64,000 bases of DNA from contig OZ241362.1 in the NCBI GenBank assembly GCA_965200315.1, forward strand, positions 1,184,001 to 1,248,000, in the 5' to 3' direction. Origin of the DNA: Candidatus Latescibacterota bacterium. Lineage in GTDB: Bacteria > Latescibacterota > UBA2968 > UBA8231. This document shows, piece after piece, positions 3,750 through 43,582 of this stretch; the stretch's first letter is position 1, and each line of letters opens with the position of its first letter. The notes under the pieces are model-generated. The model saw only the letters and a list, made by a program, of their open reading frames with translations, did not search any database and had not been told where the DNA came from. A program made the translations under genes and the position numbers.

Positions 3750-5612
3750 CTAGGAGGCTGCCGCCTGCCTCTCCTCATGACTTGCAACCTCTTGTTGGTA
3801 AGCCAGCGCGGCCTCGACAAACCCGGCAAACAAGGGCGAGGGATTGTCCATCCGCGACTTAAACTCGGGATGGGCTTGGGTGGCGATGAAGAAGCGGTGC
3901 TCCGGCAACTCGATAAACTCCATCAAGCGAGTGCCGTCCACGCGACGGTGATACCCAGCAAAGACCAGCCCCTCCTCCTCGAGCAGTTCGACGAAGCGGG
4001 GCGAGACCTCGTAGCGATGGCGGTGGCGCTCTAGGGCAACTTTGTCGCGCTCCAGCATGACCAAGCCAACGCGGAACGCTTGGCCGGGATTGGCCAACAG
4101 TTGTTGGATGCGGCGGGCGTCTTCGTCGAGGCGACCCGACTCTTCGTAAATCTGGAGGACGCGGCTGTCGCTTTTGAACACCGCGGCATACGCGCCCAAG
4201 CGCATGCTGCCACCGTAGCGGTTTTCTTCTAGCGCGCTCTTTTGCTCGGCGTCTTGGACGCAGATGACCTTCCACTCGGAATCCGCGTCGAACTCTTCGG
4301 AAGTAGCCTCGGCGATCCCGGCAACATTGCGGGCGTATTCGATCACGGAAAGCTGCAAGCCATAGCACAGGCCCAAATAGGGGATGTTGTGCTCGCGGGC
4401 ATAGCGAATGGCCGCAATCACGCCTTCAGCTCCTCCCGCCCCAAAGGCCCCGGGGACGATAACGCCATCGAATGCGTCGAGAGCTGCTAGCTCCATTTCG
4501 CCGCGCTCAAACTGATGGCCGTCAATCCAAGTAATCTCGACCCGCGCATCCGACGCTACGCCAGCGTGTATCAGCGATTGGTTGACCGAAATGTACGAGT
4601 CCGTGAGCTGAAAGTCGCCCGTGGCCACGTATTTGCCGACCATGGCCACGCGGACACACTGCCGAGGATGCCGACTGCGCTTGACCAATTCCAGCCAAGG
4701 CCGCCAGTCTGGAGTCTTCTTGGGCACGCAGCCGACCCGGTTGAGGATCTTCTCGCCGAGCCGCTCTTTTTCCAAAACCAGCGGGATATTGTAGATCGTC
4801 TCCGAGTCCGGGGCCGAAATGATGTGGTCGTAGGGCACGTTGGCACCGATCTGGATCTTTTTCTTGCGCACCTCGTCGGTGGCGGTCTCGGCGCGACAGA
4901 CGATGAAGTCGGGGAAAATGCCGTGCTCGCTGAGCATGCGAATGGCCTGCTGAGTGGGCTTGGTCTTCATTTCGCCGACGTGTGGCGGTATGGGCAGATA
5001 GGTGATGAGCAGGTGTGCAAAGTGCTCCTCACCCAAGTCTCGCTCCAAGGTCTTTACGGCAAAGAGGAACGGCTCATTTTCGTAGTCGCCGACAATGCCG
5101 CCGATCTCGACCAACACGATGTCGTAGCCCGCGCCCGCCTCTTGCAAGCGGCGGGTGATCTCGTCTGTAATGTGCGGGATCGGCTGTACGGTCTCGCCGA
5201 GGTACTCGCCGCGGCGCTCGCGCTCGATTACTGTGAGGTAAATCTGCCCGGTGGTCAGGTTGTTGGAACGCGGCAGATCCAACCCCAAGAAGCGCTCGTA
5301 GTTGCCCAAATCCTGATCGATTTCGCCGCCGTCGTCCGTTACCCATACCTCGCCGTGCTCGGTGGGCCGCATGGTGCCGGCGTCGTAGTTGATATACGGA
5401 TCAATTTTGACGGCCGTGGTGCTGTAGCCGTATTGCTGCAGGATCTTGCCGATGGAAGCGGTGGTCAAGCCCTTGCCCACGCCGCTTATCACGCCGCCGG
5501 TCACAACGACGTATTTGGGGCCTTTGTATTCTCTGGCCACGTTGTGCGCTCCTTCGAGCTGCTCAAACAAAGAAGCGGCGACAGTGCCCTGCCTCCGCTT
5601 CTCAATAGTCAA
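3750..5612 (-). CDS. pyrG: CTP synthase
   Basis: VTGGVISGVGKG, KIDPYIN, EHGEV, KTKPTQ, GLCYGLQ, ERHRHRYE, QAHPEF motifs. Confidence 0.95.
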   Translation of the reverse strand: MTIEKRRQGTVAASLFEQLEGAHNVAREYKGPKYVVVTGGVISGVGKGLTTASIGKILQQYGYSTTAVKIDPYINYDAGTMRPTEHGEVWVTDDGGEIDQDLGNYERFLGLDLPRSNNLTTGQIYLTVIERERRGEYLGETVQPIPHITDEITRRLQEAGAGYDIVLVEIGGIVGDYENEPFLFAVKTLERDLGEEHFAHLLITYLPIPPHVGEMKTKPTQQAIRMLSEHGIFPDFIVCRAETATDEVRKKKIQIGANVPYDHIISAPDSETIYNIPLVLEKERLGEKILNRVGCVPKKTPDWRPWLELVKRSRHPRQCVRVAMVGKYVATGDFQLTDSYISVNQSLIHAGVASDARVEITWIDGHQFERGEMELAALDAFDGVIVPGAFGAGGAEGVIAAIRYAREHNIPYLGLCYGLQLSVIEYARNVAGIAEATSEEFDADSEWKVICVQDAEQKSALEENRYGGSMRLGAYAAVFKSDSRVLQIYEESGRLDEDARRIQQLLANPGQAFRVGLVMLERDKVALERHRHRYEVSPRFVELLEEEGLVFAGYHRRVDGTRLMEFIELPEHRFFIATQAHPEFKSRMDNPSPLFAGFVEAALAYQQEVASHEERQAAAS

Positions 5613-30183: not shown

Positions 30184-30804
30184 TTATTTTTTCCCTTCCG
30201 GCCCCGGCCAAGGCGGGAAGAGTTGGTGTTCGAGCCGCAGCACATTGCAGACGCGGCCAGCGATAAAATCGCCCAAATCGTCCAAGGTCTGCGGCTTTTG
30301 GTAGAAGGCTGGCATGGCCGGCAATATGATGGCCCCGGCTTCGGCTGCGGCCGTCATATTGCGCAACTGAATCAGGTTGAGCGGGGTCTCGCGCACCACC
30401 AACACCAGTGGCCGCCGCTCCTTGAGGCTGACATCGGCCGCCCGCTCAATCAGGCTTGAAGATGCCCCACGGGCAATGCTCGACAGCGTTTTGACCGAAC
30501 AAGGCACCACCACCATACCGTCGATGGCCACCGAACCACTAGCGATGGGGGCCGCTAGGTCGCTGGCGTTGTACTCGCGCAATTCACCAACTTGGGTCTC
30601 CTCCCCATAGCACCGCGTTATAAATGCGCGCAAGCTCTCCTTGTCGGGGCGGAAGCCCAGCTCTTCGACGAGCAGGTAGCGCCCGTATTTGGACATAACC
30701 AGATGCACGTGGTGTCCGCCGATCAGCAGGGCACGCAGGAGGCGGCCAGCGTAGAGCGCGCCACTGGCTCCGGTAATGCCGACGACGATCTGTTTGCCGC
30801 TCAC
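30184..30804 (-). CDS. ubiX: Flavin prenyltransferase
   Basis: [34 protein letters not shown]. Confidence 0.93.
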
Positions 30805-32783
30805 GACGCCCCCTTTAGCGCCTCGCGGCCCGCTTCGAGCGTGGCGACAATCGCATCCACGTCATAGACGCAACCGCCCCAAGTGCCACCGCCGACGTTT
30901 TGCAGCGCCGCCCACAGCTTAGTGTCGTCGGGCAACTCCGCTTCGGGCGCAAGGTCTGGGCGCAAGGTGCGCTCGGCCAGCACCCGTTGGCCTTCCTCTG
31001 CGCCGAACTCCTCGCCGCCGCCGCCGACCAAATCGATGCGGCCGCGCAGGTTGTGGCAGTCGATTTCAATGGCGATCAAGTCGCCGTCTCGCAGCTTGCC
31101 GATGGGGCCGCCAGCCAAAGCCTCTGGGCCGATGTGCCCGATACAAGGACCAGAGGAAAACCCCGAAAACCGCGCGTCCGTAAGCAGGGCCACGCGCTTA
31201 CCAATATCCGTGTATTTGAGCGCGATCGTAACCTGCGCCACTTCTTCCATGCCCGTGCCCATCGGCCCGCAGCTAATCATCACCAGCACGTCGCCCGGCT
31301 CGATCTTGCCGTCCTTGATCGCGGCGATGGTGTCGCGTTCGGTGGTAAAAACCTTCGCCGGTCCCCTGTGCCGATAGACCCCTTGCGCGTCGAGCAACGA
31401 AGAGTCAATAGCCGTGCTTTTGACGACCGCGCCCTCGGGCGAGATGTTGCCGACCGGGAAGCAGATGGTGCTGGTCAGGCCCTTGGCGTGGGCGCGCTCG
31501 GCGTCCATTATCACGTCGTCCGGCTCCACCCCGTCTAGCTTTTTCAGCTCCTCGCGGAAACGGTGCCGACGCGGTGCATTCTCCCACCAGTCGAGATTTT
31601 CGCCCAGTGTGCGGCCCGTAACCGTCATCACCCCCTCCTCCAACAGCCCCAAGCGGCGCAAGTGCAACATGACCTCTGGCACCCCACCGGCCAAAAAGGC
31701 GCGCACAGTAACGTGGAACTCTGGACCGTTGGGCAGCACATCCACCAAGCGCGGCACCTCGCGGTTGATCCGGTCCCAATCCCCCACCTCGGGCCGCTTT
31801 CGCCCAGCCGCATGGGCAATAGCCGGCACGTGCAATATCAAATTGGTCGAACCGCCAAAGGCCGCGTGGACGACCATGGCGTTGTGCAGGGCCGCGTCGG
31901 TGACCAACTCCTGCGAACGAATCCCCGCGGCCTCCAGCACCATTAGCGCCCGCGCCGAGCGCACGGCCATATCGCGCCAGACAGCCTCGCCCGAAGGAGC
32001 CAGCGCCGAATGCGGCAGCGACAGCCCCAGCGCCTCGCCCACAACTTGGGTCGTGGCCGCAGTCCCCAAAAACTGACAGCCGCCCCCCGGCGTGGCGCAA
32101 GCGCGGCAGCCCAATACCTGAAAGTCGTCAATGTCCATCTCGCCGCGCGCCAGCCGCGACCCGGCGGATTGGATTTTGCCCGCGTCCTCGCCTTCTTCCG
32201 GCGGCAGGGTCACCCCGCCGGGCACGACAATGACCGGCAGGTCTGGCGTACCCGCTAGGGCGATGAGGACCGCCGGCAATCCCTTGTCGCAGGTGCCCAC
32301 GCCCATCACGCCGCGCCGCGTTGGCAACGAGCGGATCAAGCGGCGCAGGATCATGGCTGCGTCGTTGCGGTACGGCAGGCTATCGAACATGCCCGTCGTA
32401 CCCTGCGAGCGGCCATCGCATGGGTCCGAGCAATAAGCGGCAAAGGGGATGCCGCCTCGGCGGTGGATTTCCTCGGCCGCCGCTTCCATCAGCAGGCCGA
32501 TTTCCCAGTGGCCAGTGTGGTAGCCCAGCGCAATAGGCCGGCCATCCGGGGCGCGGATGCCGCCCTGCGTACTGACGATGAGAAACTCGCCCCGGCCCAG
32601 CTCGTCGGGATTCCAGCCCATCCCCGCATTCTGGCTGTAGCCAAAGATGTGGCCGCTCGGCGCTTCTACTACCTGCTCTATGGTCAGCGGCAGCTTGCCG
32701 CTGGGGCCGGGAGCACGGGTGCGGATTTGGTAGATTTCACTATCGGTCTCGCCGACGATGTCTGCAAAGGAATCAGTACTCAT
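30801..32783 (-). CDS. YjhG/YagF family D-xylonate dehydratase (IlvD/Edd family)
   Basis: [45 protein letters not shown]. Confidence 0.88.
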
Positions 32784-32798
32784 GTTGCCTCGTTGTCT

Positions 32799-33809
32799 TC
32801 ACCAGCCCTCTTCGCGGACTTGGATTTTCTCTATCAGGGGACGCCACCAAGCTTCGTTGTCGCGGTACCAGTGGACCGTAGCGCGGAAGCTCTGGGCAAA
32901 ATCGACTTGCGGTTTCCAACCTAATTGGGTGCGGATTTTGCTCGAATCAAGTAGATAGCGCCGGTCGTGGCCGGGCCGGTCATCGACATAGGTTTTGTGC
33001 GCGGCATCCATTCCCAAGGCGTCGAGGATCAGATCGGCAATGGTTTCGACGTCTTTTTCAATGCCGCTGCCAACGTTGTACGTCTCTCCGATCCCGCCCT
33101 TTTTCAGCACTAGGTCGATGGCCCGGCAGTGGTCGTCGACGTGGAGCCACTCGCGGCGGTTCTGGCTCGATTTGTACAGCGGCATCTTCTGGCCGGTGAG
33201 CAGGCGGACGACGAAGAAGGGAATGACTTTTTCGGGGAATTGGTACGGGCCAAAGTTGTTGGCGCAGTTCGACAGCGTCACGGGCAAGCCAAAGGTATGG
33301 CCATAAGCGCGGACGGCTAGGTCGGCGGCCGCCTTGGCCGCGTTGTACGGGGTGCGCGGTCGATAGGGCGATTCTTCGCTGAAAGACTCGTCCGCGTCGA
33401 GGGCCAAGTCGCCGTACACTTCACAAGTGGAAACGTGGTGGAAGCGCGGCACTTGGGCATCAGCCGCGGCCTGCAACAGCTTTTGCGTACCCACGACATT
33501 GGTCTGGAAAAAGGCCGAGGGGTTGACAATGGCCAAGCTGTTGTGCGATTCCGCGGCAAAGTTGACCACGTAGTCCGGTCGGTGGACCGCGAAGAGATGA
33601 CGGGTCAGATCAGCGTTCTGAATATCGCCGCGCACAAAGGTGTAGCGGTCGCCGTATTTTTCTTTCACGTCCTGTAGGCTGGCCAAGTTGCCGGCGTAGG
33701 TGAGCAGGTCGTAGTTGACAATGCGGTCGTCGGGGTAGGTCGATAGCCAGTAGCGAATGAAATTGGAGCCGATGAAACCGGCCCCGCCGGTGACGAACAG
33801 GGTAGTCAT
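32799..33809 (-). CDS. rfbB: dTDP-glucose 4,6-dehydratase
   Basis: TGGAGFIGSNF, LTYAGNL, FAAESH, STCEVYG, YNAAK, DRPGHDRRY. Confidence 0.93.
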   Translation of the reverse strand: MTTLFVTGGAGFIGSNFIRYWLSTYPDDRIVNYDLLTYAGNLASLQDVKEKYGDRYTFVRGDIQNADLTRHLFAVHRPDYVVNFAAESHNSLAIVNPSAFFQTNVVGTQKLLQAAADAQVPRFHHVSTCEVYGDLALDADESFSEESPYRPRTPYNAAKAAADLAVRAYGHTFGLPVTLSNCANNFGPYQFPEKVIPFFVVRLLTGQKMPLYKSSQNRREWLHVDDHCRAIDLVLKKGGIGETYNVGSGIEKDVETIADLILDALGMDAAHKTYVDDRPGHDRRYLLDSSKIRTQLGWKPQVDFAQSFRATVHWYRDNEAWWRPLIEKIQVREEGW

Positions 33810-33864
33810 GGATTCTTTTGGTTAGGCATTAGATGCGCGGTCTGTCATTTAATTAATATAACAT

Positions 33865-33883
33865 CTAGGCAACTCGCAGCCGG
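33865..33883 (+). repeat. Left imperfect direct repeat of island
   Basis: ctaggcaactcgcagccgg vs ctaggcaacccgcaaccag at 43583-43601 (16/19 identical). Confidence 0.5.
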
Positions 33884-33916
33884 GATTTTAGTTAATACCC
33901 TTATTACTACCCTCAC

Positions 33917-34978
33917 TCAAGCGTTACTACCCTTATTCCCGAGAAAACGCCAGCGCGCACCCGGGCCTCGGCCGCTGCAAGCTACATCGCCGGATTTCTT
34001 TAGCTCCGCTAAAAGAGTGCGAATCCATTCGCGGCCGACGCCGGGACAGGCATACTCTATGTCACTCAGGCGGAATTCGCCCGGTTGGGCGCGGATGGCG
34101 GCGAGCACCAGCTCGGACTTGGCACCCCGTGGAGCCTTGATCTGACCGGCGCGTTCCTCCAACCCGACGTAAGCGCGGCGGATGATCGCAAAGAAGAAAT
34201 TGAACCAAGGCGTCAGTTCGTGTTTGCCGTCGTGCCAGCGCTGTGAACTGAGCCGGAGGCATTCGTAGTAGGACTCCCGGGATTCCTCAATAAGGCGTTC
34301 CAAGCTGATGTAGCGACCAACCTCGTAGCCGTGCTGGTAGAGCGCCAACAGGGTGAGCAGCCGGGACACGCGACCGTTGCCGTCCCGGAAAGGATGAATG
34401 CAAAGGAAATCCAAGACGAGAGCGGCGATGGCGATGAGTGGTGGGATATTCTCCTGGTCAATAGCGTGCTGGTAATGCTGACAGAGTTGTTCTACAGCCG
34501 CCGAGGTCTCCGCAGCCTTCACGCAGCGGAACCGGACCACCGGGGCCTGTCCGGGCAGGAACTCCACGATGTCGTTATCGACTCGTTTGAATTGGCCCGC
34601 GTCGCCGCTGGCGGATTGGCAAAGAGCATGTAGGCGTTGCAGGGTATCCGGCGTGATAGAAAGAGCGGCGTAGTCGGAGTGAATTTCGTTCAAGGCGCGG
34701 CGATAGTCCTGAATCTCCTGCTCGGAGCGGTCGCGGGGTTTGGCTTGGCCGAGCACCAGCGGGTAAAGACGGGCTTGAGCGACCGTCACTCCCTCGATGC
34801 GATTAGAGGATTCAGCACTCTGAATGACAGCTATGTCGCGGAGCGCTTTGAGCGCTTGTGGCGACTGGCGCGTGAATAGCTCCTGTTTGCCCCTCGACTC
34901 GGCGATGTCGTTGAGCAACCACACCGTGCTCAGGGGTGTTTCGTGGTCGCGTAGGCGGTTGTTGCGGAAAGAATTCAT
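33917..34978 (-). CDS. Fic family protein with N-terminal inhibitory motif and C-terminal HTH-like region
   Basis: HPFRDGNGRVSR Fic motif; SNRIEG matches (S/T)xxxE(G/N). Confidence 0.92.
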   Translation of the reverse strand: MNSFRNNRLRDHETPLSTVWLLNDIAESRGKQELFTRQSPQALKALRDIAVIQSAESSNRIEGVTVAQARLYPLVLGQAKPRDRSEQEIQDYRRALNEIHSDYAALSITPDTLQRLHALCQSASGDAGQFKRVDNDIVEFLPGQAPVVRFRCVKAAETSAAVEQLCQHYQHAIDQENIPPLIAIAALVLDFLCIHPFRDGNGRVSRLLTLLALYQHGYEVGRYISLERLIEESRESYYECLRLSSQRWHDGKHELTPWFNFFFAIIRRAYVGLEERAGQIKAPRGAKSELVLAAIRAQPGEFRLSDIEYACPGVGREWIRTLLAELKKSGDVACSGRGPGARWRFLGNKGSNA

Positions 34979-35084
34979 GGTTTGAGAGGAGATTCAAAGC
35001 GCAAGCAAGTTCTGGCTGAGCCGGGGATATGGACGATGCCGTTGAACTGGTACCCTGAAGATAGCACGGATACCCGAAACACGT

Positions 35085-36050
35085 CTATAAAAAATGTTTA
35101 CCAGCATGATCTGTAAACGAATCAGCGTCGCGGATGTATTGCATGACCGTGGCCGGGTTAGTGTGGCGGGTGACGGCCATGATTTTGTCTAGTCGGGCAT
35201 GATGCACTGCCGCGCTGGTGACAAAACCTGCCCGCAGGGAATGCCCTGCTACTTCTTTGGGGTCCAGTCCGATCCGTGCAGCATAGTGCTTGACAAGGCG
35301 TGGGATATCAGAATGGTGCAGCGGCTTGCCTTGCACATGGCCACCACGCTTCATCGTCTGAAATAGTGGGCCGCACATGATCCCCGACGCATTAAGCCAC
35401 ATCTGAAGACGATGGACAGGACGGATAACACGGCCGTCCAAGATGGCGATTTTTTGCCCCCTCCCCTGTTGATCCGTCTTGGAGTGCCGGATGGTAAGAA
35501 ACATGCGCTGACTCGCTTCCTCTGTAGGTTCAAAGAACTCAACATCCTCTACGGTCAGACCGCATATCTCCGAGCGCCGCAGGGCACCCGCAAAGCCGAG
35601 GGCCAAAATAGCCGCGTCGCGCCGCCCGATGGTCGTATCAGCACATTGAGAAAGCATGGCTTGAATATGGTATTCCCTGAGTGCTTCTACTCGACGACAC
35701 GCGGTACCTTTGAGCCGGGCCAACCCTTTGAGGGTGGCACGGACCACGGGATGATTGGTCGGAGACGACTTTCCGGCGTCGGTATATTTCTTGTTGATGG
35801 CACTCTTATAGAGCGTCACAGTGCCCATAGATAGCACGGTACCGTGCTGGCTCGGCTTTGTCGCTAGATGCACGAGAAAACGCGCTACCATATCCGGGGA
35901 GGCAGATAACGGGTCGTCAAGATGCTCTTTTGTGCAGTAGTTGGTGAACCTAGACCATCCTTTTTCATAGGCAACGCGGGTATTTGTCGCCAATGCGGAG
36001 GAAAGGACATTGGTATGGAAACCTTGCTCAATCATGGCTGAGGATCTCAA
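35085..36050 (-). CDS. Cre-like tyrosine site-specific recombinase
   Basis: RDAAILALGFAGALRRSE, SKTDQ, GHSLRAG, TRH, QYIR catalytic set; TTG start at 36050 behind AAGGAG. Confidence 0.92.
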   Translation of the reverse strand: MRSSAMIEQGFHTNVLSSALATNTRVAYEKGWSRFTNYCTKEHLDDPLSASPDMVARFLVHLATKPSQHGTVLSMGTVTLYKSAINKKYTDAGKSSPTNHPVVRATLKGLARLKGTACRRVEALREYHIQAMLSQCADTTIGRRDAAILALGFAGALRRSEICGLTVEDVEFFEPTEEASQRMFLTIRHSKTDQQGRGQKIAILDGRVIRPVHRLQMWLNASGIMCGPLFQTMKRGGHVQGKPLHHSDIPRLVKHYAARIGLDPKEVAGHSLRAGFVTSAAVHHARLDKIMAVTRHTNPATVMQYIRDADSFTDHAGKHFL

Positions 36051-36096
36051 TGGTAACTCCTTTGTTAGGGTTTTAGTGTCTTGAAACTTGCAAGAT

Positions 36097-36864
36097 ATGA
36101 CCGAACAACATGATATTGCCATTTATCGAGGAGTTCTTACTGGTTACAATGACGCCTTTATCATTGATAACAACACTAAAGAAGCATTGATCGCCGAAGA
36201 TCCACGCTCTGCCGACATCCTCAAGCCTGTGCTGCGCGGACGGGATATAAAACGCTATCGGGCAGAGTGGGCAGGCCTGTGGCTAATTGACACACACAAC
36301 GGGTACGGCAGTGTTACGGCTGTCGATGTAGATGAATACCCAGCCATCAAAAATCATTTGGACCAGTTCTATTTCCAACTGAAAAAGCGGCAAGATAAAG
36401 GTAGGACACCGTATAATCTTCGTAATTGCGCTTACCACGAAGTATTTGAAAAGGAAAAGCTGGTGTGGATGGATCTGACGGAACAAGGACGGTTTGCGTA
36501 TGACGTGGATGGCCTGTTCTGCTTAAACACGGCATTTATTATGTCAGGTCCATCAATCAAATATTTATGCGCCCTGCTTAATTCTAATCTGATAACTTGG
36601 TTTATGAGAAACACTGCTCTGAGTTCTGGAATGGGTGTTACGAGATGGATTAATGCTTCCGTAGAATCAATCCCCATTCCGAAAATCACTATAGAAGAGC
36701 AACTTTCATTCATCCGGTTGGTTGACCGTATCTTGAAGGTCAAAATATCTAACCCAACAGCCGATGTCAGCGATCAGGAGACAGAGATAGACCGCCTCAT
36801 CTATGCCCTCTATGGTCTGAAAAAAAAAGAAATCGCAGCGGTATCAGTAAAGGACAAATCATAG
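36097..36864 (+). CDS. Alternative (inverted) target-recognition-domain cassette for the adjacent MTase-TRD gene, TaqI_C-like
   Basis: Homologous to C-terminal ~260 aa of 36923..40543 (DIAI, GYNDAFIIDNNTKEALIAEDPRSADILKPVLRGRDI, CAYHEVFEKEKL, KYLCA.LNS.LITW); no MTase motifs. Confidence 0.88.
   Translation: MTEQHDIAIYRGVLTGYNDAFIIDNNTKEALIAEDPRSADILKPVLRGRDIKRYRAEWAGLWLIDTHNGYGSVTAVDVDEYPAIKNHLDQFYFQLKKRQDKGRTPYNLRNCAYHEVFEKEKLVWMDLTEQGRFAYDVDGLFCLNTAFIMSGPSIKYLCALLNSNLITWFMRNTALSSGMGVTRWINASVESIPIPKITIEEQLSFIRLVDRILKVKISNPTADVSDQETEIDRLIYALYGLKKKEIAAVSVKDKS
36112..36123 (+). repeat. IR1 left arm (12 bp)
   Basis: gatattgccatt, exact reverse complement of 37694-37705; same reading frame (DIAI) in both copies. 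Confidence 0.75.
36157..36283 (+). repeat. IR2 left arm (127 bp)
   Basis: Reverse complement of 37534-37660 with 9 mismatches by hand count; includes 29-bp and 33-bp perfect blocks. Confidence 0.92.
36426..36462 (+). repeat. IR3 left arm (37 bp)
   Basis: ttgcgcttaccacgaagtatttgaaaaggaaaagctg, exact reverse complement of 37328-37364. Confidence 0.92.
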
Positions 36865-36922
36865 GTAAATCAAATTCTAAACGGCACCAAAACATAGTTT
36901 TATGAGCCGTCACGTTGATCGT

Positions 36923-39900
36923 CTAGGGTAGAAGATGCTCCTCTACTGCGAATATCTCCGTCTCCGTCAGTCCGTACAATTCGTAAACCTGCATATTAAT
37001 TTTGGCTTCAGTGGCAGATACATCGGCTTCCGGGTTAGTCGCTTTAGCCTTCAGGATACGGTCAACTAACCGGGCAAAAGGATGCTGCTTTACGGTAGGG
37101 ACTTGGGGAATAGGCAGGCGTTCTACCACAAATTTATCCCATTGGGTGAGTCCCATACCAGTCGTTACTGCGGTGTTCCGGACCTGCCAAGTTATGAGGC
37201 GACTATTCAAAATCGCACAGAGGTATTTGAGAGAATTTCCAGTGACAACAAATGCCTTTTGGTTGCAGAAAATAGTCTCCGAGTCGGAATATGCGAATCT
37301 GCCATTTGGTGCCATGTGCATCCAAAACAGCTTTTCCTTTTCAAATACTTCGTGGTAAGCGCAAGTATCCTGTAATTCGTACCAAGTATGCACAGTCTTT
37401 TTTCTTGATTTAGTGCCATTCGGAAGGGTTCTGCCCGATTGTTCTAATCTCGCTTCGCCAAAAGATAGCAGGTGTCTTTTCACGGCTGGATAGTCATCAA
37501 TGTTGAGTGCGAGAGCAGGAAATGTTGCTATCGGCCACAGGCCTGCCCACTCTGCCCGATAGCGTTGAATATCTCGGCCTCTCAGCACAGGCTTGAGGAT
37601 ATCGGCAGAGCGTGGATCTTCGGCTATCAACGCTTCTTTAGTGTTGTTATCAATGATAAAAGCATCGTTGTAGCCCGTCTTAATTCCGTAGTTAATGGCA
37701 ATATCCCACTCTTTCAGCGGCGTTCCCGCAGATTCCATCTTATCCATAATGCTCTGTTCAATGACCGATAGCGCACTCCACGGCTTTTCACCTTGCGGAC
37801 GCAACGTTCCCCACAGGGATTCGTCGGGTGGAAAGGTTTTATCGGACAAACGATCCATGTCCACGGCCTTGCCGATTTCATTACTCTTGCCATTGCGTAC
37901 TATCAGGACATTGGTATCCACAATGGCTTTTTCAAAAACATCTTTGCCCATTTCCAGCAGGCGCATCGGCGTGTGATGCTCAAAGAAGTAGCGGCGCAAG
38001 GCTTTGCCGTACTCTGCCTTGAGCCAGCTATTAGATGTGATATAGGCCAGCAAGCCTTGGGCTGGTTTGAGCAGCCGGCAGCCGCGCTCGTAGAAAAGCT
38101 GGTAAATGTCGCCAGTGCGGGCGAACGTTGCGTAGCCAGCATCCTTGTAGAGCTTGCCCAGTTCGCCGCTGTTTTTCTGCAATTGAATGTACGGCGGATT
38201 CCCGATCACCACATCAAACCCATCCTCCACTCCAAACATATACTCAGCGTCGAACCAACCCGCTTTCTCATTCTGGTCGTAGGGATCCCACCGCGCAATT
38301 TTACTAGCGTCATCTTCGGGAAGGCCGGCGGAAATCAGTTCCTTTGCCAATGCCTTACGCAACCGTTTGTCCTCATCTCTACAGGCCAGTTTTTTCCGGC
38401 GCGTGGTCGCGTGAAAATGCCGCTCGCGATTTTTCACCAAGTTTGTTTTCAGGGCCTCTATTTGCTGACGGAACAAGTCTAATTGATCCGCTTCCTCGAT
38501 TCCCAACAGCGTGTTCGCCGCCACAAAGCGCGTCTCCAGATTCGGCAGCGGCTTGATGCCAAAGTTCTCGACAGCCGCGTCGGCTTCCTGCTCAATCGCC
38601 AGCGAAATGAAAAAGCGCAGTTTGGCGATCTGGCAAGCGACCGGCTGAATATCCACGCCAAATATGCTGTTCTGAATCAAGTATAGCTTGCGCCCAAAAT
38701 CGCCCGAATACCGCTCGAAAATTTCGCTGATTCCGGTTAGTTCGTCATTGCGTTCCTGTTGATTCCGGGTATCGAAAGCCGCCGCGGCTCGTTGAGTAGC
38801 GCGCTCCTTTTGCAATGCCTGCCAGCGTTTATTCTCAGGGTCAATCCGCTGCAACGCCAAGGTCAGCTTGTGCAGTATGCCTATCGGAAACGCACCGGAA
38901 CCGACCGCCGGATCAAGCACCTTGATCTCCGCAATCGCCCGCACAATGCTCTCGGCTTCGGCTTCTTTAAAAAGTTCATTGGCATCATCAAATGCGTCTT
39001 CATAATCCAACAAATAGCGCAAACGATCTCGCCAGCACACCGCGCCGCCATCGTCGGGCTGCGCTCTTTCCGCCAGCGCTGCCACCAACGCCTCCTCCAC
39101 CATGTAATCCACCACAACGCGGGGTGTATAGTACGATCCAGTCTGCTTGCGCGCTGTCTCGCGGGTCTCTGGATTGTAGGCCGCCAGCAAGTTCTCAAAG
39201 ACCTTGCCGAGCAGTTCCGGGTCCAGAGCAACCTCCTGCTCCGCGGGCGTGTTTTCCTCCACCGTGAATTTGTAGTGGTTGAGCAGGGGAAATAGGCCGG
39301 CGGCGTCAAAAAATAGCCGGTTGGGAATGGACAAAAGCCCGTATTCCTTAGTGCCGGGTTTGATTGCGTTGTCGGAAAAGCAGTCAACGCGCCAGCCGCC
39401 ATAGCGCGTCGCTTCCTCGCTGTCCAAACAATCGAACAAGCCGCCGTTGATGAATGGGGTCTGGGCGAACAGGCCCAGCAGCGCATCAGGATCGCTAATC
39501 TCCCGTTTGTAGCGATACAAAGAAAAATTGCGGTGCGTGGCGTTTTGCGCTTGACTGAACCCACGTTTGTCGAGCTCGGTGTTCAGGGTGGCGAAAAACA
39601 GGTTTTGCAGCACCGCACGATAGTAGGAATCGCCGGTGTCGCGGTTGTAGTTTTTTAGCAGCAGGCGGATTCGTGCCTCGACGAACAGGTCGCCGGCAGT
39701 CAGCCCCTTCTCCTTCATAAACCAGACGAACAGCAGGCGCGTGATGAGGCGAATGACGTGCTCTTCGGCGGGCAGGGTGCGGGCCTGAGCGGTGGGAAAC
39801 CGGGCCTCGCCGACGGCGCGATCAAACCAAGTGAACAGCTCCCGGTAAAACCGTCGGTTGAGCTCTTCGGTGTCCAGTTTGTCTAACCACGCAGCCAGCA

Positions 39901-40543
39901 GGCCATCAAAATTGTGCGGCTTGTCGTGAGCATCCATCCACTCGGCACATTCGGCTAGCGACAGTTCGGCCAAAACATCCAAGTGGGCGCGATGGGGGCT
40001 GCCCGGGTCAATTTCCCGTATCAGCGACACATGGCCTAGCACATCGCGCCTTGGGTCGCGCTGGTGCTCGCGACGATGTACAAAGGCCAAGGTGAGCTTC
40101 TTATCGGCGGTTCTGAACAAAACGACCGAGGGTTGGACCAAGCGCTTGTTGAGCTCGCGGGTGAACTGCGCGTACTGGCCACGTGCGTAGGTTGCTTCCT
40201 TCAGTTCCACGGCGAAGAAGATAAAGCTCTGCTGCCGTCCCTTGTCGAAAAAAGCGGCCGTAAACCCAAACGCCGGCTGATTAGTTGAGGCGATTTCGTC
40301 GCTAGTAAACTGAAAGACAAGCCGCACGGATTGGACGTTTTCGCAGAAGGCCTGCTCCGTTTTGGTGTTTCCTTTCTCGGCGGGGAACTGCGCGATGAAG
40401 TCGGCAACATCGCCTGTCTGCTCAGGCAAGGTGCGCTCGCTGCGGTAGCCAAGAACAGCCAGTACGTCTTGCGTTGCCGCGGCAAAATCGCCCTGCGGCA
40501 TGGCCGCAAGAACGGCGCGTACATCCTCTTTTATGCTGCTCAT
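36923..40543 (-). CDS. Type IIG/Eco57I-like N6-adenine methyltransferase with C-terminal TRD
   Basis: LLGKVFENLL, TGSYYTP, LDPAVGSGAFP, PLPNLE, GFDVVIGNPPY, TaqI_C-like C-terminus; ATG overlaps helicase stop (ATGA) with upstream GAGG. Confidence 0.92.
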   Translation of the reverse strand: MSSIKEDVRAVLAAMPQGDFAAATQDVLAVLGYRSERTLPEQTGDVADFIAQFPAEKGNTKTEQAFCENVQSVRLVFQFTSDEIASTNQPAFGFTAAFFDKGRQQSFIFFAVELKEATYARGQYAQFTRELNKRLVQPSVVLFRTADKKLTLAFVHRREHQRDPRRDVLGHVSLIREIDPGSPHRAHLDVLAELSLAECAEWMDAHDKPHNFDGLLAAWLDKLDTEELNRRFYRELFTWFDRAVGEARFPTAQARTLPAEEHVIRLITRLLFVWFMKEKGLTAGDLFVEARIRLLLKNYNRDTGDSYYRAVLQNLFFATLNTELDKRGFSQAQNATHRNFSLYRYKREISDPDALLGLFAQTPFINGGLFDCLDSEEATRYGGWRVDCFSDNAIKPGTKEYGLLSIPNRLFFDAAGLFPLLNHYKFTVEENTPAEQEVALDPELLGKVFENLLAAYNPETRETARKQTGSYYTPRVVVDYMVEEALVAALAERAQPDDGGAVCWRDRLRYLLDYEDAFDDANELFKEAEAESIVRAIAEIKVLDPAVGSGAFPIGILHKLTLALQRIDPENKRWQALQKERATQRAAAAFDTRNQQERNDELTGISEIFERYSGDFGRKLYLIQNSIFGVDIQPVACQIAKLRFFISLAIEQEADAAVENFGIKPLPNLETRFVAANTLLGIEEADQLDLFRQQIEALKTNLVKNRERHFHATTRRKKLACRDEDKRLRKALAKELISAGLPEDDASKIARWDPYDQNEKAGWFDAEYMFGVEDGFDVVIGNPPYIQLQKNSGELGKLYKDAGYATFARTGDIYQLFYERGCRLLKPAQGLLAYITSNSWLKAEYGKALRRYFFEHHTPMRLLEMGKDVFEKAIVDTNVLIVRNGKSNEIGKAVDMDRLSDKTFPPDESLWGTLRPQGEKPWSALSVIEQSIMDKMESAGTPLKEWDIAINYGIKTGYNDAFIIDNNTKEALIAEDPRSADILKPVLRGRDIQRYRAEWAGLWPIATFPALALNIDDYPAVKRHLLSFGEARLEQSGRTLPNGTKSRKKTVHTWYELQDTCAYHEVFEKEKLFWMHMAPNGRFAYSDSETIFCNQKAFVVTGNSLKYLCAILNSRLITWQVRNTAVTTGMGLTQWDKFVVERLPIPQVPTVKQHPFARLVDRILKAKATNPEADVSATEAKINMQVYELYGLTETEIFAVEEHLLP
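37328..37364 (-). repeat. IR3 right arm
   Basis: Inverted copy of 36426-36462. Confidence 0.92.
37534..37660 (-). repeat. IR2 right arm
   Basis: Inverted copy of 36157-36283. Confidence 0.92.
37694..37705 (-). repeat. IR1 right arm
   Basis: aatggcaatatc, inverted copy of 36112-36123. Confidence 0.75.
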
Positions 40544-43527
40544 GTTGTCTCTTTCCTCGTGCTCATTGTCAAGAGGGTGCCGACTCTCTGTAAAATTGCA
40601 TCTACTGTCTGCGTGGGCAAAGAGCATATAAACGCTGTATTTCTTGCCCGCCAATCCATACTCTTGACTTGATCTGTTAGAATAACGCCCGGCACATCCT
40701 GCCTCTCGGGCATGGCGACTTCAAAGGGATACCCTTTCACGTGACTGGTAACTGGGCAAAAAATCGCCAAACGGGTCTTGCTGTTATAAGCCCTCGGTGA
40801 GAGTACAACGGCGGGGCGACGGCCACCTTGCTCATGCCCTGCTTGCGGATTGAAGTCAATCCATACGACATCGCCGCGCTGTTTTAGCTCCATCTGAATC
40901 GACTCAGATGGGTATTCGTTTAACGGATCGTCGTCGCCGCTAGCGGTGGCGTCCGCCAAGGCCATGCGTGCTTGTACGCGGCTTTGCAGGCGCAGATAAA
41001 CCTCGAGGTCCTTGGTAGGCCAATAGTTAATCATCCACACCGACTGGTTGCGGCTGCCGATGCGGTCAATGCGCCCTAAGCGCTGAATGATACGCACTGG
41101 ATTCCAGTGGATGTCGTAGTTGAGTGCGGTATCGCAATCCTGAAGGTTCTGCCCCTCTGAGATGCAATCGGTGGCAATCAGCAAGTCGATTTCGTCGGTG
41201 CTATTGGCCTGCCCGTGTGCCCGTGGCGCGAAGAGGGTCAGAATGGCGTTGAAGTTGTTAGGACCGAAAGCGGTGCGCGTTGCGTCCCCAGAGACCATCG
41301 CCATGTTCAACCCCAATTCGTGCACCAAGTCCGCCAAGTTTTCGTACAGATACTCCGCCGTATCCTTGAAGGTGGTAAACACCAGCAGCTTGCGGTTGAT
41401 CCGGCCATCCTTGTCGGTCGTCGGGTGTTGTGCTCTGTCCCGAATGTGCGCCTTAATCTCTCGCAGCTTACCGTCCCGTTCCGGCGTGATAATACTGACC
41501 CGTTCATAGACCGCCTCCAGAGTCTTCTTATCCTTCAGCAAGTCCTCTTTCCAACGGGGCAAATCCAACTCGCGCAGATGGTAGGGGGTGCGTGCCCGAT
41601 TGATCTGAAATTCCTCGTCATCTTCATCGTCATCCGGGAGGGTATCCGCTCGCTCGTCCAACAGCAGGTTTTGCTCATAGCGGTCTATCTTTTCTAGCAG
41701 GTCGTCAATTTTGCCGATAGTGCGCTTGAGCGTTTCCGTCAGAGAGTGGGCCGAACTTTCTAGGCGTTTCAGAAAGTTGACTCGTATCATACTGATGAGG
41801 AAACGCTCGCGGTCAGCCTGATTAAACCGCAGTTGCTTCTTTTCGTCCGCCAACCGTTGCTTGGCTTCGGGGCTGGTAACATAGCTTGACGGCCGGTAAA
41901 TGGATAAGGCGAACTGCTCAATTTGCGCGGATAATTTTTTGTACGAAAGCTCGTCCTCTAAATCCGTCAGCGGGTAGCAATTCTCCGGCTGTTGCCGCGT
42001 GGGGAACTGACCGATCCGGTCTATTTCTTCGGCGTAGAATTGCTTGATCTGCCGCCGTGAGCGAGCAATGGAAATGCCGCCCAACAGCTTAAAAAAATCA
42101 GCACCCAACGTCTCCAGTAACGTCGTCTTGTCTTTTTTGACACTCTTCTCCGCTTTCGTCTCCCATGCCTTAAACTCCTTTTGCGCCTGACCTAAGAGCG
42201 TGCCGATATGGCCGATGCCCAGACTTTCCCGGAACATGTCCTCGCGCTTTTCGGTCATCAGATAAATTTGATTGCGGAGGTCAATAAGCGAGGTGTTGAC
42301 CGGCGTCGCTGAAAGCATCAGCACCTTCGTTTGGGTTCCAGCCTTGATGACTTCTTCTAACAGCCGCGAGTAGCGGCTGTGGCGAATCCTGCCGTCTTCG
42401 TCGAGACGAGACTTGGAGTCATTGCGAAAATTGTGAGATTCGTCGATGACCACCATGTCAAAATTGCGCCAGTTGAACTGGGCCAGATCAATGTCGCCGG
42501 CTTGCCCACTGCTGCGGGACAAGTCCGTATGCGATAGCAAGGTGTAGCCAAAGCGGTCTTCGAGGAAGGGATTGCCAGTTCGGGCGTTATATGCTGGATA
42601 CAGCGCCCAATTTTCGCGCAACTTTTTGGGGCATAACACCAGCACTCGTTCGTTACGCAATTCAAAGAACTTGATAACCGCTAACGCCGTATAGGTCTTT
42701 CCCAAGCCGACCGCGTCGGCCAAAATACAGCCATTGTGCCGCCGCAGGTGAGCGATCACGCTCTTAGCTCCGTCTTTTTGGAAGTCGTACAGCGCGTTCC
42801 AGACGGCGGTATCGTATAGGTGTGTATCTTTTAGGTGGCTTTCGCCGGCTTTTCTCGCTTCGATGTCTTCCTGGAACAACTCGTAGAGCGTTTTATAGTA
42901 GATCAACTCCGGCGCGTACTCTCTGCCTATCCGCGCCAGCGCGTCCAGCACGTCCTTTTTGACATCCTTGGTCAGCGTCTTGTCCGCCCACAGATCGTCA
43001 AACCATTGTTGTAGTTCGGTACAAGTAGCTGCGTTTTGGGTTGCCAAGTTGATTTCCACGTTGGCACTCGTCCCGCTGCCTAGACCGCCGCGAGTAAAGT
43101 TGGAGCTGCCAACCACCGCTGTGCCGCCATTGGCTGATTCGGTGAGATACATCTTGCCGTGCAGAAAGTTGGATTTGCCAATGGAGCGAATTTTGACGCC
43201 TTTGCTGCTTATCCATGCTGTGCATTGACGAGCAAGGTATTTCTGTTGCAATGCGTACAGAGGCGATAGCCCGTCTTCAGTCAGGTTGAAGGCTTTTTGC
43301 GCTTTCTCGCCGGGGTCTAACTCGCCAACCGATGCCGGATCACCAAAGAGAAAACGCACATCCTTAACACCGTTCAATTCGCTTTGCAGGGCCTCGTACC
43401 CATAAATGGTGAAATACGCCGAGACGAGGCGAAACACCTCAGCGGCTGACAGGTGCGGCCGCAAATAATCGACAACTCGACGCTGGCGATTGTCTAGGAT
43501 GTGTTCGATGTGTTCGTATTCTGCCAT
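40540..43527 (-). CDS. PLD(HKD)-nuclease / SNF2-like SF2 helicase with in-frame C-terminal MazF/PemK domain
   Basis: LHGKMY...GSSNFT (PLD); LADAVGLGKT, IDESHNFR, LSATPVN, SEGQNLQ, HWNP..IIQRLGRIDRIG (SF2); QRGDVVWIDFNPQAGHEQGGRRPAVVLSP..YN...DQVKSMDW (MazF). Confidence 0.88.
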   Translation of the reverse strand: MAEYEHIEHILDNRQRRVVDYLRPHLSAAEVFRLVSAYFTIYGYEALQSELNGVKDVRFLFGDPASVGELDPGEKAQKAFNLTEDGLSPLYALQQKYLARQCTAWISSKGVKIRSIGKSNFLHGKMYLTESANGGTAVVGSSNFTRGGLGSGTSANVEINLATQNAATCTELQQWFDDLWADKTLTKDVKKDVLDALARIGREYAPELIYYKTLYELFQEDIEARKAGESHLKDTHLYDTAVWNALYDFQKDGAKSVIAHLRRHNGCILADAVGLGKTYTALAVIKFFELRNERVLVLCPKKLRENWALYPAYNARTGNPFLEDRFGYTLLSHTDLSRSSGQAGDIDLAQFNWRNFDMVVIDESHNFRNDSKSRLDEDGRIRHSRYSRLLEEVIKAGTQTKVLMLSATPVNTSLIDLRNQIYLMTEKREDMFRESLGIGHIGTLLGQAQKEFKAWETKAEKSVKKDKTTLLETLGADFFKLLGGISIARSRRQIKQFYAEEIDRIGQFPTRQQPENCYPLTDLEDELSYKKLSAQIEQFALSIYRPSSYVTSPEAKQRLADEKKQLRFNQADRERFLISMIRVNFLKRLESSAHSLTETLKRTIGKIDDLLEKIDRYEQNLLLDERADTLPDDDEDDEEFQINRARTPYHLRELDLPRWKEDLLKDKKTLEAVYERVSIITPERDGKLREIKAHIRDRAQHPTTDKDGRINRKLLVFTTFKDTAEYLYENLADLVHELGLNMAMVSGDATRTAFGPNNFNAILTLFAPRAHGQANSTDEIDLLIATDCISEGQNLQDCDTALNYDIHWNPVRIIQRLGRIDRIGSRNQSVWMINYWPTKDLEVYLRLQSRVQARMALADATASGDDDPLNEYPSESIQMELKQRGDVVWIDFNPQAGHEQGGRRPAVVLSPRAYNSKTRLAIFCPVTSHVKGYPFEVAMPERQDVPGVILTDQVKSMDWRARNTAFICSLPTQTVDAILQRVGTLLTMSTRKETT

Positions 43528-43582
43528 ATCAGATAGGGAAAGAAGTGAATAGGCTTTCAATTGCTTAGTGATTGTCTAGCAC

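Follow-up and report, generated by a model that had tools for sequence, protein, structure and literature searches.

Probable invertible specificity locus of an N6-adenine DNA methyltransferase in a Candidatus Latescibacterota genome

Organization of the locus

Here we analyse a stretch of 64,000 nucleotides from a Candidatus Latescibacterota bacterium (assembly GCA_965200315.1, contig OZ241362.1, positions 1,184,001 to 1,248,000 of the forward strand; called the window below, with all positions counted from its first letter). It contains the gene of a large N6-adenine DNA methyltransferase (MTase), a second, silent copy of the target recognition domain (TRD) of this enzyme in opposite orientation and the gene of a tyrosine recombinase, which probably constitute an invertible specificity locus. 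The genome is a single contig of 5.36 Mb, and the sequencing runs that contain the window DNA are labelled sponge metagenome.

The MTase is encoded on the minus strand (36923-40543) and comprises 1206 amino acids (aa) counted from its ATG. It is composed of an N-terminal domain, an Eco57I-type catalytic domain with the motif GNPPY (Pfam Eco57I, E 8.8e-35) and a TaqI_C-type TRD at the C-terminus (Pfam TaqI_C, E 4.1e-12). The silent TRD cassette lies on the plus strand (36088-36864), is open over 258 codons and has TaqI_C as its only Pfam match, i.e. it is devoid of an MTase domain. Cassette and MTase C-terminus are convergent (tail to tail) and 57% identical over 258 aa, the two TRDs being built from near-identical blocks that alternate with three diverged segments, A, B and C. 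A promoter and terminator scan of 35900-37100 was uninformative, as it returned two promoter-like sites where 2.3 are expected and no terminators.

Base-by-base comparison reveals that the near-identical blocks form nested inverted repeats (IRs). The outermost, IR1 (36112-36123/37694-37705), is 12 nucleotides (nt) long and identical at 12/12 positions, IR2 (36157-36283/37534-37660) spans 127 nt with 9 mismatches (36186, 36192, 36216, 36235, 36237, 36240, 36243, 36249 and 36250) and has a perfect stretch of 33 nt at its inner end, and IR3 (36426-36462/37328-37364) is identical over 37/37 nt. The original prediction, which was made from the letters of the window, had named these three repeats, placed them in one reading frame and described the intervening segments; its coordinates and its mismatch count hold to the base, the shared frame is borne out by codon phases that are equal in both genes (0/0 for IR1, 0/0 for IR2, 2/2 for IR3), and the segments are as described. 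Absent from its list is IR4 (36714-36767/37020-37073; 54 nt, 79.6% identity), which divides module C from a C-terminal tail, D. A repeat search returned two inverted pairs, 36112-36294/37523-37705 (183 nt, 85%) and 36423-36501/37289-37367 (79 nt, 78%). The anatomy of nested repeats is thus real.

The silent cassette, on the plus strand, carries the modules a2-b2-c2-d2, i.e. module A at 36124-36156 (YRGVLT...; 33 nt), module B at 36284-36425 ('DTHNGYG', type b2; 142 nt), module C at 36463-36713 (WMDLTEQGRF..., type c2) and tail D at 36768-36864 (VSDQETEIDRL...). Their counterparts in the expressed TRD, all on the minus strand, are module A at 37661-37693 (NYGIKT...; 33 nt), module B at 37365-37533 ('ATFPAL', type b1; 169 nt), module C at 37074-37327 (WMHMAPNGRF..., type c1) and tail D at 36923-37019 (VSATEAKINMQ...).

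Inversions between the arms of these repeats were simulated, innermost first, for all 16 subsets of IR1-IR4. In every case the MTase stays open (1196-1206 aa), as does the silent open reading frame (ORF; 257-268 aa), and eight distinct A-B-C combinations arise, so that the predicted 2^3 = 8 alleles, all of them intact MTases, are obtained in silico.

The recombinase

The tyrosine recombinase, the presumed invertase, is encoded on the minus strand next to the silent cassette. The ORF as called covers 35085-36122; homologues favour a start at 36035 (MIEQ...), which yields a protein of 316 aa (35085-36035; Pfam Phage_integrase, E 3.3e-14). The gene had been predicted to be intact and to start just outside the outer repeat, and both points stand, the refined start lying 76 nt outside IR1. 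Its best match in the Protein Data Bank (PDB) is Cre (E 1.9e-10, residues 29-308), and it is in this sense of best solved-structure match that the recombinase is Cre-like; in NCBIfam it matches Xer-type models below their cut-off. Residues R153, K186, H265, R268, H291 and Y300 are invariant in 7/7 aligned homologues, and from their position we take these R-K-H-x-x-R-H-Y columns to be the catalytic residues.

Programmed-inversion loci have been defined by inverted repeats that overlap a long target coding sequence (CDS) and a shorter partial paralogue in opposite orientation, with a recombinase gene beside the target (PMC9881135). All of these elements are found here, i.e. a target of 1206 aa, a partial paralogue of 258 codons and an intact tyrosine recombinase gene.

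Comparison with relatives

A recombinase profile of seven sequences detected 79 loci in a species-representative genome collection (designated by L numbers). The full architecture, i.e. MTase core, TRD, inverted TRD and recombinase, is present in 30 of the 79, many of them on multi-megabase contigs, and a genome search for recombinase, separate TaqI_C and MTase neighbourhoods, proposed earlier as a check, therefore had a positive outcome. Among the remaining loci, one has both TRDs at a contig start, five are cut inside the silent cassette, seven contain TRD fragments and 36 gave no TRD match with our queries. In the five cut loci (L033, L038, L039, L086 and L099) the contig ends no more than ~150 nt into the silent cassette, beside the recombinase, and assemblies of relatives tend to break at these repeats. 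By our own grouping, the record titles of the 30 full loci come from about ten phyla and include Latescibacterota, Gemmatimonadota, Chloroflexota (Caldilineaceae, Dehalococcoidia), Binatia, Thermodesulfobacteriota, Poribacteria, Nitrospirales, Opitutales, Rhodothermales as well as Gamma- and Alphaproteobacteria.

Evidence for a second orientation was provided by another scan, in which metagenomes were searched with the recombinase protein. It gave two loci, L111, which is informative, and L112 (32% identity), which was not used. L111 lies on a metagenome contig, its recombinase is 94% identical to that of the window, and the Fic gene that follows the recombinase in the window and the next gene flank it as well (91% nt identity). 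In L111 the DNA from IR1 to IR1 has the opposite orientation relative to MTase body and recombinase, and the silent cassette is a1-b1-c1, i.e. the one that is expressed in the window, while the expressed cassette is a2-b2-c3. At one end the inversion is bounded by the first base of IR1 (36112); at the other, the alignment continues through the right arm of IR1 to 37720. The second orientation that had been anticipated in relatives thus exists between the same flanks.

Both cassettes were extracted from 26 loci, in which module B could be typed in 24 and module A in 20, untyped loci being omitted from the respective counts. B types are opposite between the two cassettes in 24 of 24 loci, the MTase carrying b2 ('HNGY') in 13 and b1 ('FPAL') in 11, and A classes are opposite in 17 of 20. 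At the same time, the modules are not linked to each other: the A x B combinations over all cassettes occur 14, 13, 13 and 10 times, and each of four C classes is found with both B types (4/4, 5/6, 10/3 and 2/6). One copy per type in each genome together with lost module linkage would be expected if inversion took place repeatedly at different nested repeats.

The DNA of the repeat arms agrees with this picture. Some likeness between arms is expected because they are paralogous coding DNA; however, at third codon positions the arms in the window are identical at all 12 sites in IR3 and at 74% in IR2, and the median identity within a genome is 0.74 for IR2 (n=15) and 0.83 for IR3 (n=26), versus 0.41 and 0.50, respectively, for the same blocks between genomes. 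Likewise, the window arms are closer to each other than to the orthologous arms of L111. These values point to homogenisation of the arms at the DNA level, beyond what protein constraint alone would cause. Overall, the comparative evidence for inversion is strong.

Members of the recombinase family that lack a TRD beside them may also have a bearing on the role of the enzyme, as several of them adjoin other inverted gene duplicates. In the Binatia loci L044, L056, L060 and L061 the repeats measure 500-1600 nt, are 92-99% identical and lie in genes that end in '...VFTVIVEYRF', and in the gammaproteobacterial loci L071 and L074 repeats are located in proteins of ~1050 aa beside the family recombinase. 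All six may be further invertible loci.

The same comparison also bears on an alternative, namely that exchange of modules is a rare event on an evolutionary time scale and comes about by general homologous recombination or gene conversion among conserved coding blocks, the recombinase being the integrase of a mobile island and programmed switching not taking place at all. About ten phyla share the locus at recombinase identities of up to 85-93%, which implies that it is horizontally mobile, and the 36 recombinase loci without TRD, too, would suit an integrase. Other observations weigh against programmed inversion as well: the arms of IR4 are 80% identical, and those of IR2 have drifted to 65-70%, i.e. 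near background, in L037, L058, L093, L052 and L054, so not every repeat is retained in every relative; moreover, the typed loci are mutually related, and the counts given above, which overstate independence, are descriptive and carry no statistical test. Yet the recombinase keeps its fixed position beside the silent cassette and its divergent orientation in all 30 full loci, it is not located at the island edge in the window, where the Fic gene lies beyond it, and the inverted gene duplicates next to its TRD-less relatives fit an invertase rather than an island integrase. Furthermore, silent cassettes are still open over ~250 codons in 26 loci. A repeat of 12 nt is too short for RecA-type exchange; nevertheless one inversion boundary in L111 falls on the start of IR1, and contig breaks of one sequencing run, X2, are located at the IR1 edges. 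On balance, rare exchange is an unlikely explanation, and recombinase-driven inversion is the reading that we pursue.

Evidence from contigs and reads

Flipping was looked for in three contig runs and one raw-read run, aligned over 34500-39000 (runs are designated by X numbers). No inversion joint was found, the test being weak with contigs assembled from 31-nt words (k=31) and a raw-read depth of ~3-13x. Such contigs are blind to inversion at IR2 and IR3, since the perfect stretches of 33 and 37 nt create no new words. At IR1 the picture is different, as 36123 is the exact end of one X2 contig and 37694 the exact start of contigs in X1 and X2, i.e. the IR1 edges, and 12 nt are too short to break a k=31 graph alone. 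These contig ends are a hint only.

The contigs speak for the opposite side, too. Both IR1 arms are spanned by unbroken contigs in X5, and position 36123 lies within an X1 contig although another X1 contig starts at 37694, so that the ends at IR1 give no clean inversion signature. In addition, loose ends that lie just past IR3 or within it, at 36470 (X8) and 37348 (X2, X5), belong to further C variants, the one in X8 encoding W-I-H-L-V-E-N-G-R-F-A-Y, which resembles the c3 class of the relatives. Hence, the populations are mixed at this locus and contain more C alleles than the two of the assembly, and some graph breaks may originate from mixed strains rather than from flipping. Contig breaks at 36186, 37039/37068 and 37349 were considered as inversion signatures and set aside; strain variation would explain the break at 36186 and those near IR4 just as well. 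An exact 31-nt search of metagenome contigs gave no match.

As the DNA comes from a metagenome in which strains vary at the locus, visible as loose ends and variant letters, the repeats might be suspected to be an assembly artefact, i.e. a collapsed or chimeric join of the TRD alleles of two strains, and short-read assemblies of relatives indeed often break inside the cassette (5/79 loci). Contig pieces of three runs from two studies, however, tile the whole region, with no other letters in X1 and in the X5 pieces over 34500-38536, the genome is one contig, and the architecture recurs in 30 loci. An artefact is therefore extremely improbable.

The methyltransferase and the role of its modules

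The closest solved structure of the MTase is CamA (PDB 7lni; E 2.7e-10, MTase residues 776-1118). Base contacts of the CamA TRD are described for Gln346, Ile349, Arg425, Gln438, Trp439, Arg441, Ser472, Ala473, Ser514, Ile517 and Tyr521 in the part of the structural study that was available to us (PMC8187626). In the alignment, Gln346 and Ile349 fall on the loop that constitutes module A (chain numbering being offset by one), the region from Arg425 to Arg441 on the last part of module B, and Ser472 and Ala473 on the variable start of module C; Ser514, Ile517 and Tyr521 are beyond the aligned part. Thus, as judged from this distant alignment, modules A, B and C probably each read bases.

The MTase had been called Type IIG-like. 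It matches PADLOC Type IIG models (REase_MTase_IIG, E 1.3e-137), whereas no nuclease domain was found in the N-terminal part by Pfam or Foldseek: residues 1-500 have only weak matches in Pfam at E <= 10, to DUF4391 (E 0.013) and MmeI_hel (E 0.044), and an AF2 model of residues 1-300 (pLDDT 71.4) has no match at E <= 0.001 in a Foldseek search of the PDB. The first 260 residues form a conserved domain. The sequence 'AVELK' was considered as a PD-ExK nuclease motif and dropped, as the lysine of 'ELK' varies among 16 homologues. The safer name is Eco57I/TaqI_C-type MTase of a two-gene system, with Type IIG as a tentative label.

Defence-family scans with Pfam and PADLOC covered seven ORFs (30801-43560). 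No HsdS, HsdM or HsdR family is present on these ORFs, and the TRD sits in the MTase chain itself, so that the locus is not of the Type I hsdS kind. The same ORFs have a weak DrmMI match (E 1.4e-22), a partial DrmD match and no DrmB/DUF1998, and the only DrmA match is secondary and partial, on the helicase upstream of the MTase (E 2.2e-19); the set that defines Class 1 DISARM is thus not there. In NCBIfam the MTase reaches no cut-off; it scores 91.9 bits with BREX-1 PglX, for which 500 are required, and does not qualify as a BREX type 1 PglX.

The same genome contains a second helicase and MTase pair outside the window (G000:C1:5108415-5115317, locus L025; 46% and 61% identical), which has a longer TRD tail and neither silent cassette nor recombinase.

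Partner helicase and neighbouring genes

The gene upstream of the MTase, also on the minus strand (40540-43560), encodes a phospholipase D-type (PLD, HKD motif) and SNF2 helicase that is fused to MazF/PemK (Pfam PLDc_2, SNF2-rel_dom, Helicase_C and PemK_toxin) and matches HKD+Snf2 in PADLOC with E 1.5e-100. The MazF/PemK domain occupies ~40543-40905 in frame, with the junction near 40905/40906; it scores 93.4 bits against PemK_toxin, above the cut-off of 23.1, and 115.9 against MazF PRK09907, just below the cut-off of 120. The helicases of relatives continue for ~205 aa past '...QMEL', the point at which the window gene switches to MazF. No antitoxin for the MazF domain was identified in the ORF list, the extent of that search.

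In several relatives (L031:4440-6092, L020:4852-6495, L021:16328-17095 and L029:11202-11969) a middle gene of ~550 aa is located between helicase and MTase. The first 260 aa of its product are paralogous to the N-terminal domain of the MTase, a domain for which neither Pfam nor the PDB gave an assignment, and the C-terminal half belongs to the sigma-70 factor family. L020 additionally contains, between helicase and middle gene (4141-4790), a pair that by eye resembles a RelE/HigB-type toxin and an antidote with a helix-turn-helix motif. This intergenic slot seems to gather modules of that sort, which could explain the origin of the MazF fusion.

These features raise the question whether the shufflon is real but restriction has been lost in this strain, the MTase then being an orphan phase-variable regulator (phasevarion) or in decay. 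The helicase lacks the C-terminal ~205 aa of its relatives and has MazF instead, a PemK domain occurs in none of the 120 helicase homologues listed (of 573 matches), and the middle gene is absent from the window. From sequence, truncation and fusion may have left the restriction arm damaged or dead, which counts against a full restriction switch, and in that case the switch would vary methylation only. In contrast, the fused ORF runs uninterrupted for 1006 codons, its stop codon and the MTase start overlap (ATGA) in the manner of a functional operon, and the PLD and SNF2 motifs were detected. We regard loss of restriction as possible, though not as the more probable state; it concerns the output of the switch and not its existence, and overlaps with the shufflon reading, which we develop below.

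On the far side of the recombinase lies the gene of a Fic-domain protein (33917-34978, minus strand; Pfam Fic, PADLOC SoFic E 4.2e-37). It is linked to the locus also in L029, L031, L033 and L111, with fragments in L018 and L024, and could belong to a common defence island.

Proposed switch

Taken together, the locus is probably an invertible specificity locus (shufflon) in which a recombinase acts on the gene of a single-chain γ-class N6-adenine MTase. In this model the MTase would act in a two-gene restriction-like system with the PLD and SNF2 helicase-nuclease, and the second TaqI_C-type TRD copy, lying tail to tail with the expressed one, would be promoterless. The four nested in-frame repeats would cut both copies into the modules A, B and C and the tail D, and the adjacent Cre-like recombinase would flip the segment enclosed by a given repeat pair, each inversion swapping everything distal to that repeat between expressed and silent copy. 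Successive inversions could thereby generate eight A-B-C combinations, or 16 with the tail, all of them open, and these combinations would be expected to methylate different motifs and, if the nuclease partner works, also to restrict different motifs. The outcome would be a mixed population. While the analysis shows the anatomy, reading frames that stay open, a close relative in the inverted state and modules that assort among relatives, the action of the recombinase as flipper, the use of all four repeats in this strain and the change of specificity are what we infer from this.

If the modules indeed correspond to individual DNA-contacting loops, crossovers between the loops of one TRD would create a natural combinatorial library, which may have spread as a community-wide phase-variable methylation or defence module. 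We put this forward tentatively, as somewhat less probable than not. Each genome would then contain two A, two B and two C loops, four or more C classes being present in the gene pool as a whole; γ-class, MmeI/CamA-like TRDs would be assembled from loop-sized modules, every one of which recognises its own part of the motif; and the switch, together with a dedicated invertase family, would have been transferred horizontally among many phyla of seemingly one habitat.

The locus is a very clean case, with four nested in-frame repeats, a complete gene in every state and relatives that display most module combinations, and may serve as a good system to study how γ-class TRD loops combine into a motif. 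For sponge microbiology it suggests one switchable methylation or defence module and an invertase family that are common to many symbiont lineages, and the truncated helicase::MazF fusion makes it worth asking whether the system still restricts in this strain.

Comparison with known systems

The original prediction implied that a switch of this kind outside Type I restriction-modification (R-M) would be new. This does not hold, as inversions of Type II R-M MTase genes have been published and confirmed by long reads: Milman, Yelin & Kishony (NAR 2023) put the number of predicted gene-altering inversion loci above 11,000, and of the 22 loci confirmed by long reads 11 encode Type II R-M enzymes, according to the parts of that paper available to us (PMC9881135). 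One of the examples described there, Bacteroides ovatus CP083813.1:5322008-5329826, has an MTase homologous to Cj0031 with a PLD and SNF helicase CDS immediately upstream, and homologues of the locus are reported from three phyla (PMC9881135). The window locus resembles this class in that a long MTase with an Eco57I domain can be recoded via repeats shared with a shorter partial copy in opposite orientation, and in that a PLD and SNF helicase CDS adjoins the MTase, a likeness by description, the copy in the window being truncated and fused to MazF. The published loci, as far as the accessible text describes them, also have recombinase genes near their targets and, at some loci, several variants. 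They differ from the window locus in that coexisting variants were seen in long reads, whereas the switch described here is proposed from sequence comparison, and in their hosts, i.e. gut Bacteroides as compared with metagenome-assembled genomes of sponge-metagenome source. The general phenomenon is thus published, and the window locus leaves that picture unchanged.

Neither a single TRD split into freely assorting sub-modules nor a spread through the present lineages appears in the main text of PMC9881135, and its supplements may cover nested repeats and sub-TRD variants of loci of the B. ovatus type. The R64 shufflon, taken up below, is named in that paper as well. On shufflons of Type IIG enzymes no other relevant paper turned up, PMC5903667 naming Type IIG solely among its references. 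Likewise, the accessible portion of a 2025 EcoSal review (PMC12707154) contained no passage on programmed inversion of Type II genes, and a literature search for such switches in sponge symbionts found none.

BREX type 1 PglX, with inversions described in Lacticaseibacillus rhamnosus (NC_013198.1; PMC9881135, available in part), is similar in being a large Eco57I-like N6-adenine MTase that is varied by nested inversions beside a recombinase. In PglX, however, the middle part is swapped and intermediates of single inversions lack the C-terminus, as far as described there, whereas here every state is a complete ORF. CamA from Clostridioides difficile, the closest solved relative of catalytic domain and TRD and the protein whose base-contacting loops align with the modules, is an orphan enzyme of fixed specificity (CAAAAA) without cassette and without recombinase.

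The invertible hsdS loci of Type I R-M systems, also called 'epigenetic invertons', reportedly include the pneumococcal SpnD39III (ivr/cod) locus with CreX/PsrA. Both kinds of loci combine a tyrosine recombinase acting, here presumably, on inverted repeats in specificity-coding DNA with silent partial copies and with repeats of different length that allow several alleles. In hsdS loci, however, reshuffling affects two whole TRDs of a separate subunit, HsdS, and spares HsdM, whereas here the TRD forms the C-terminal domain of the MTase itself and crossovers would occur within one TRD.

Finally, in the R64 shufflon the recombinase Rci rearranges PilV tips, short sfx sites flanking several segments. 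As proposed for the window locus, inversions exchange the C-terminal end of an otherwise constant protein among silent segments; protein and function are different, and in the locus described here the nested repeats are themselves conserved coding blocks of two homologous cassettes.

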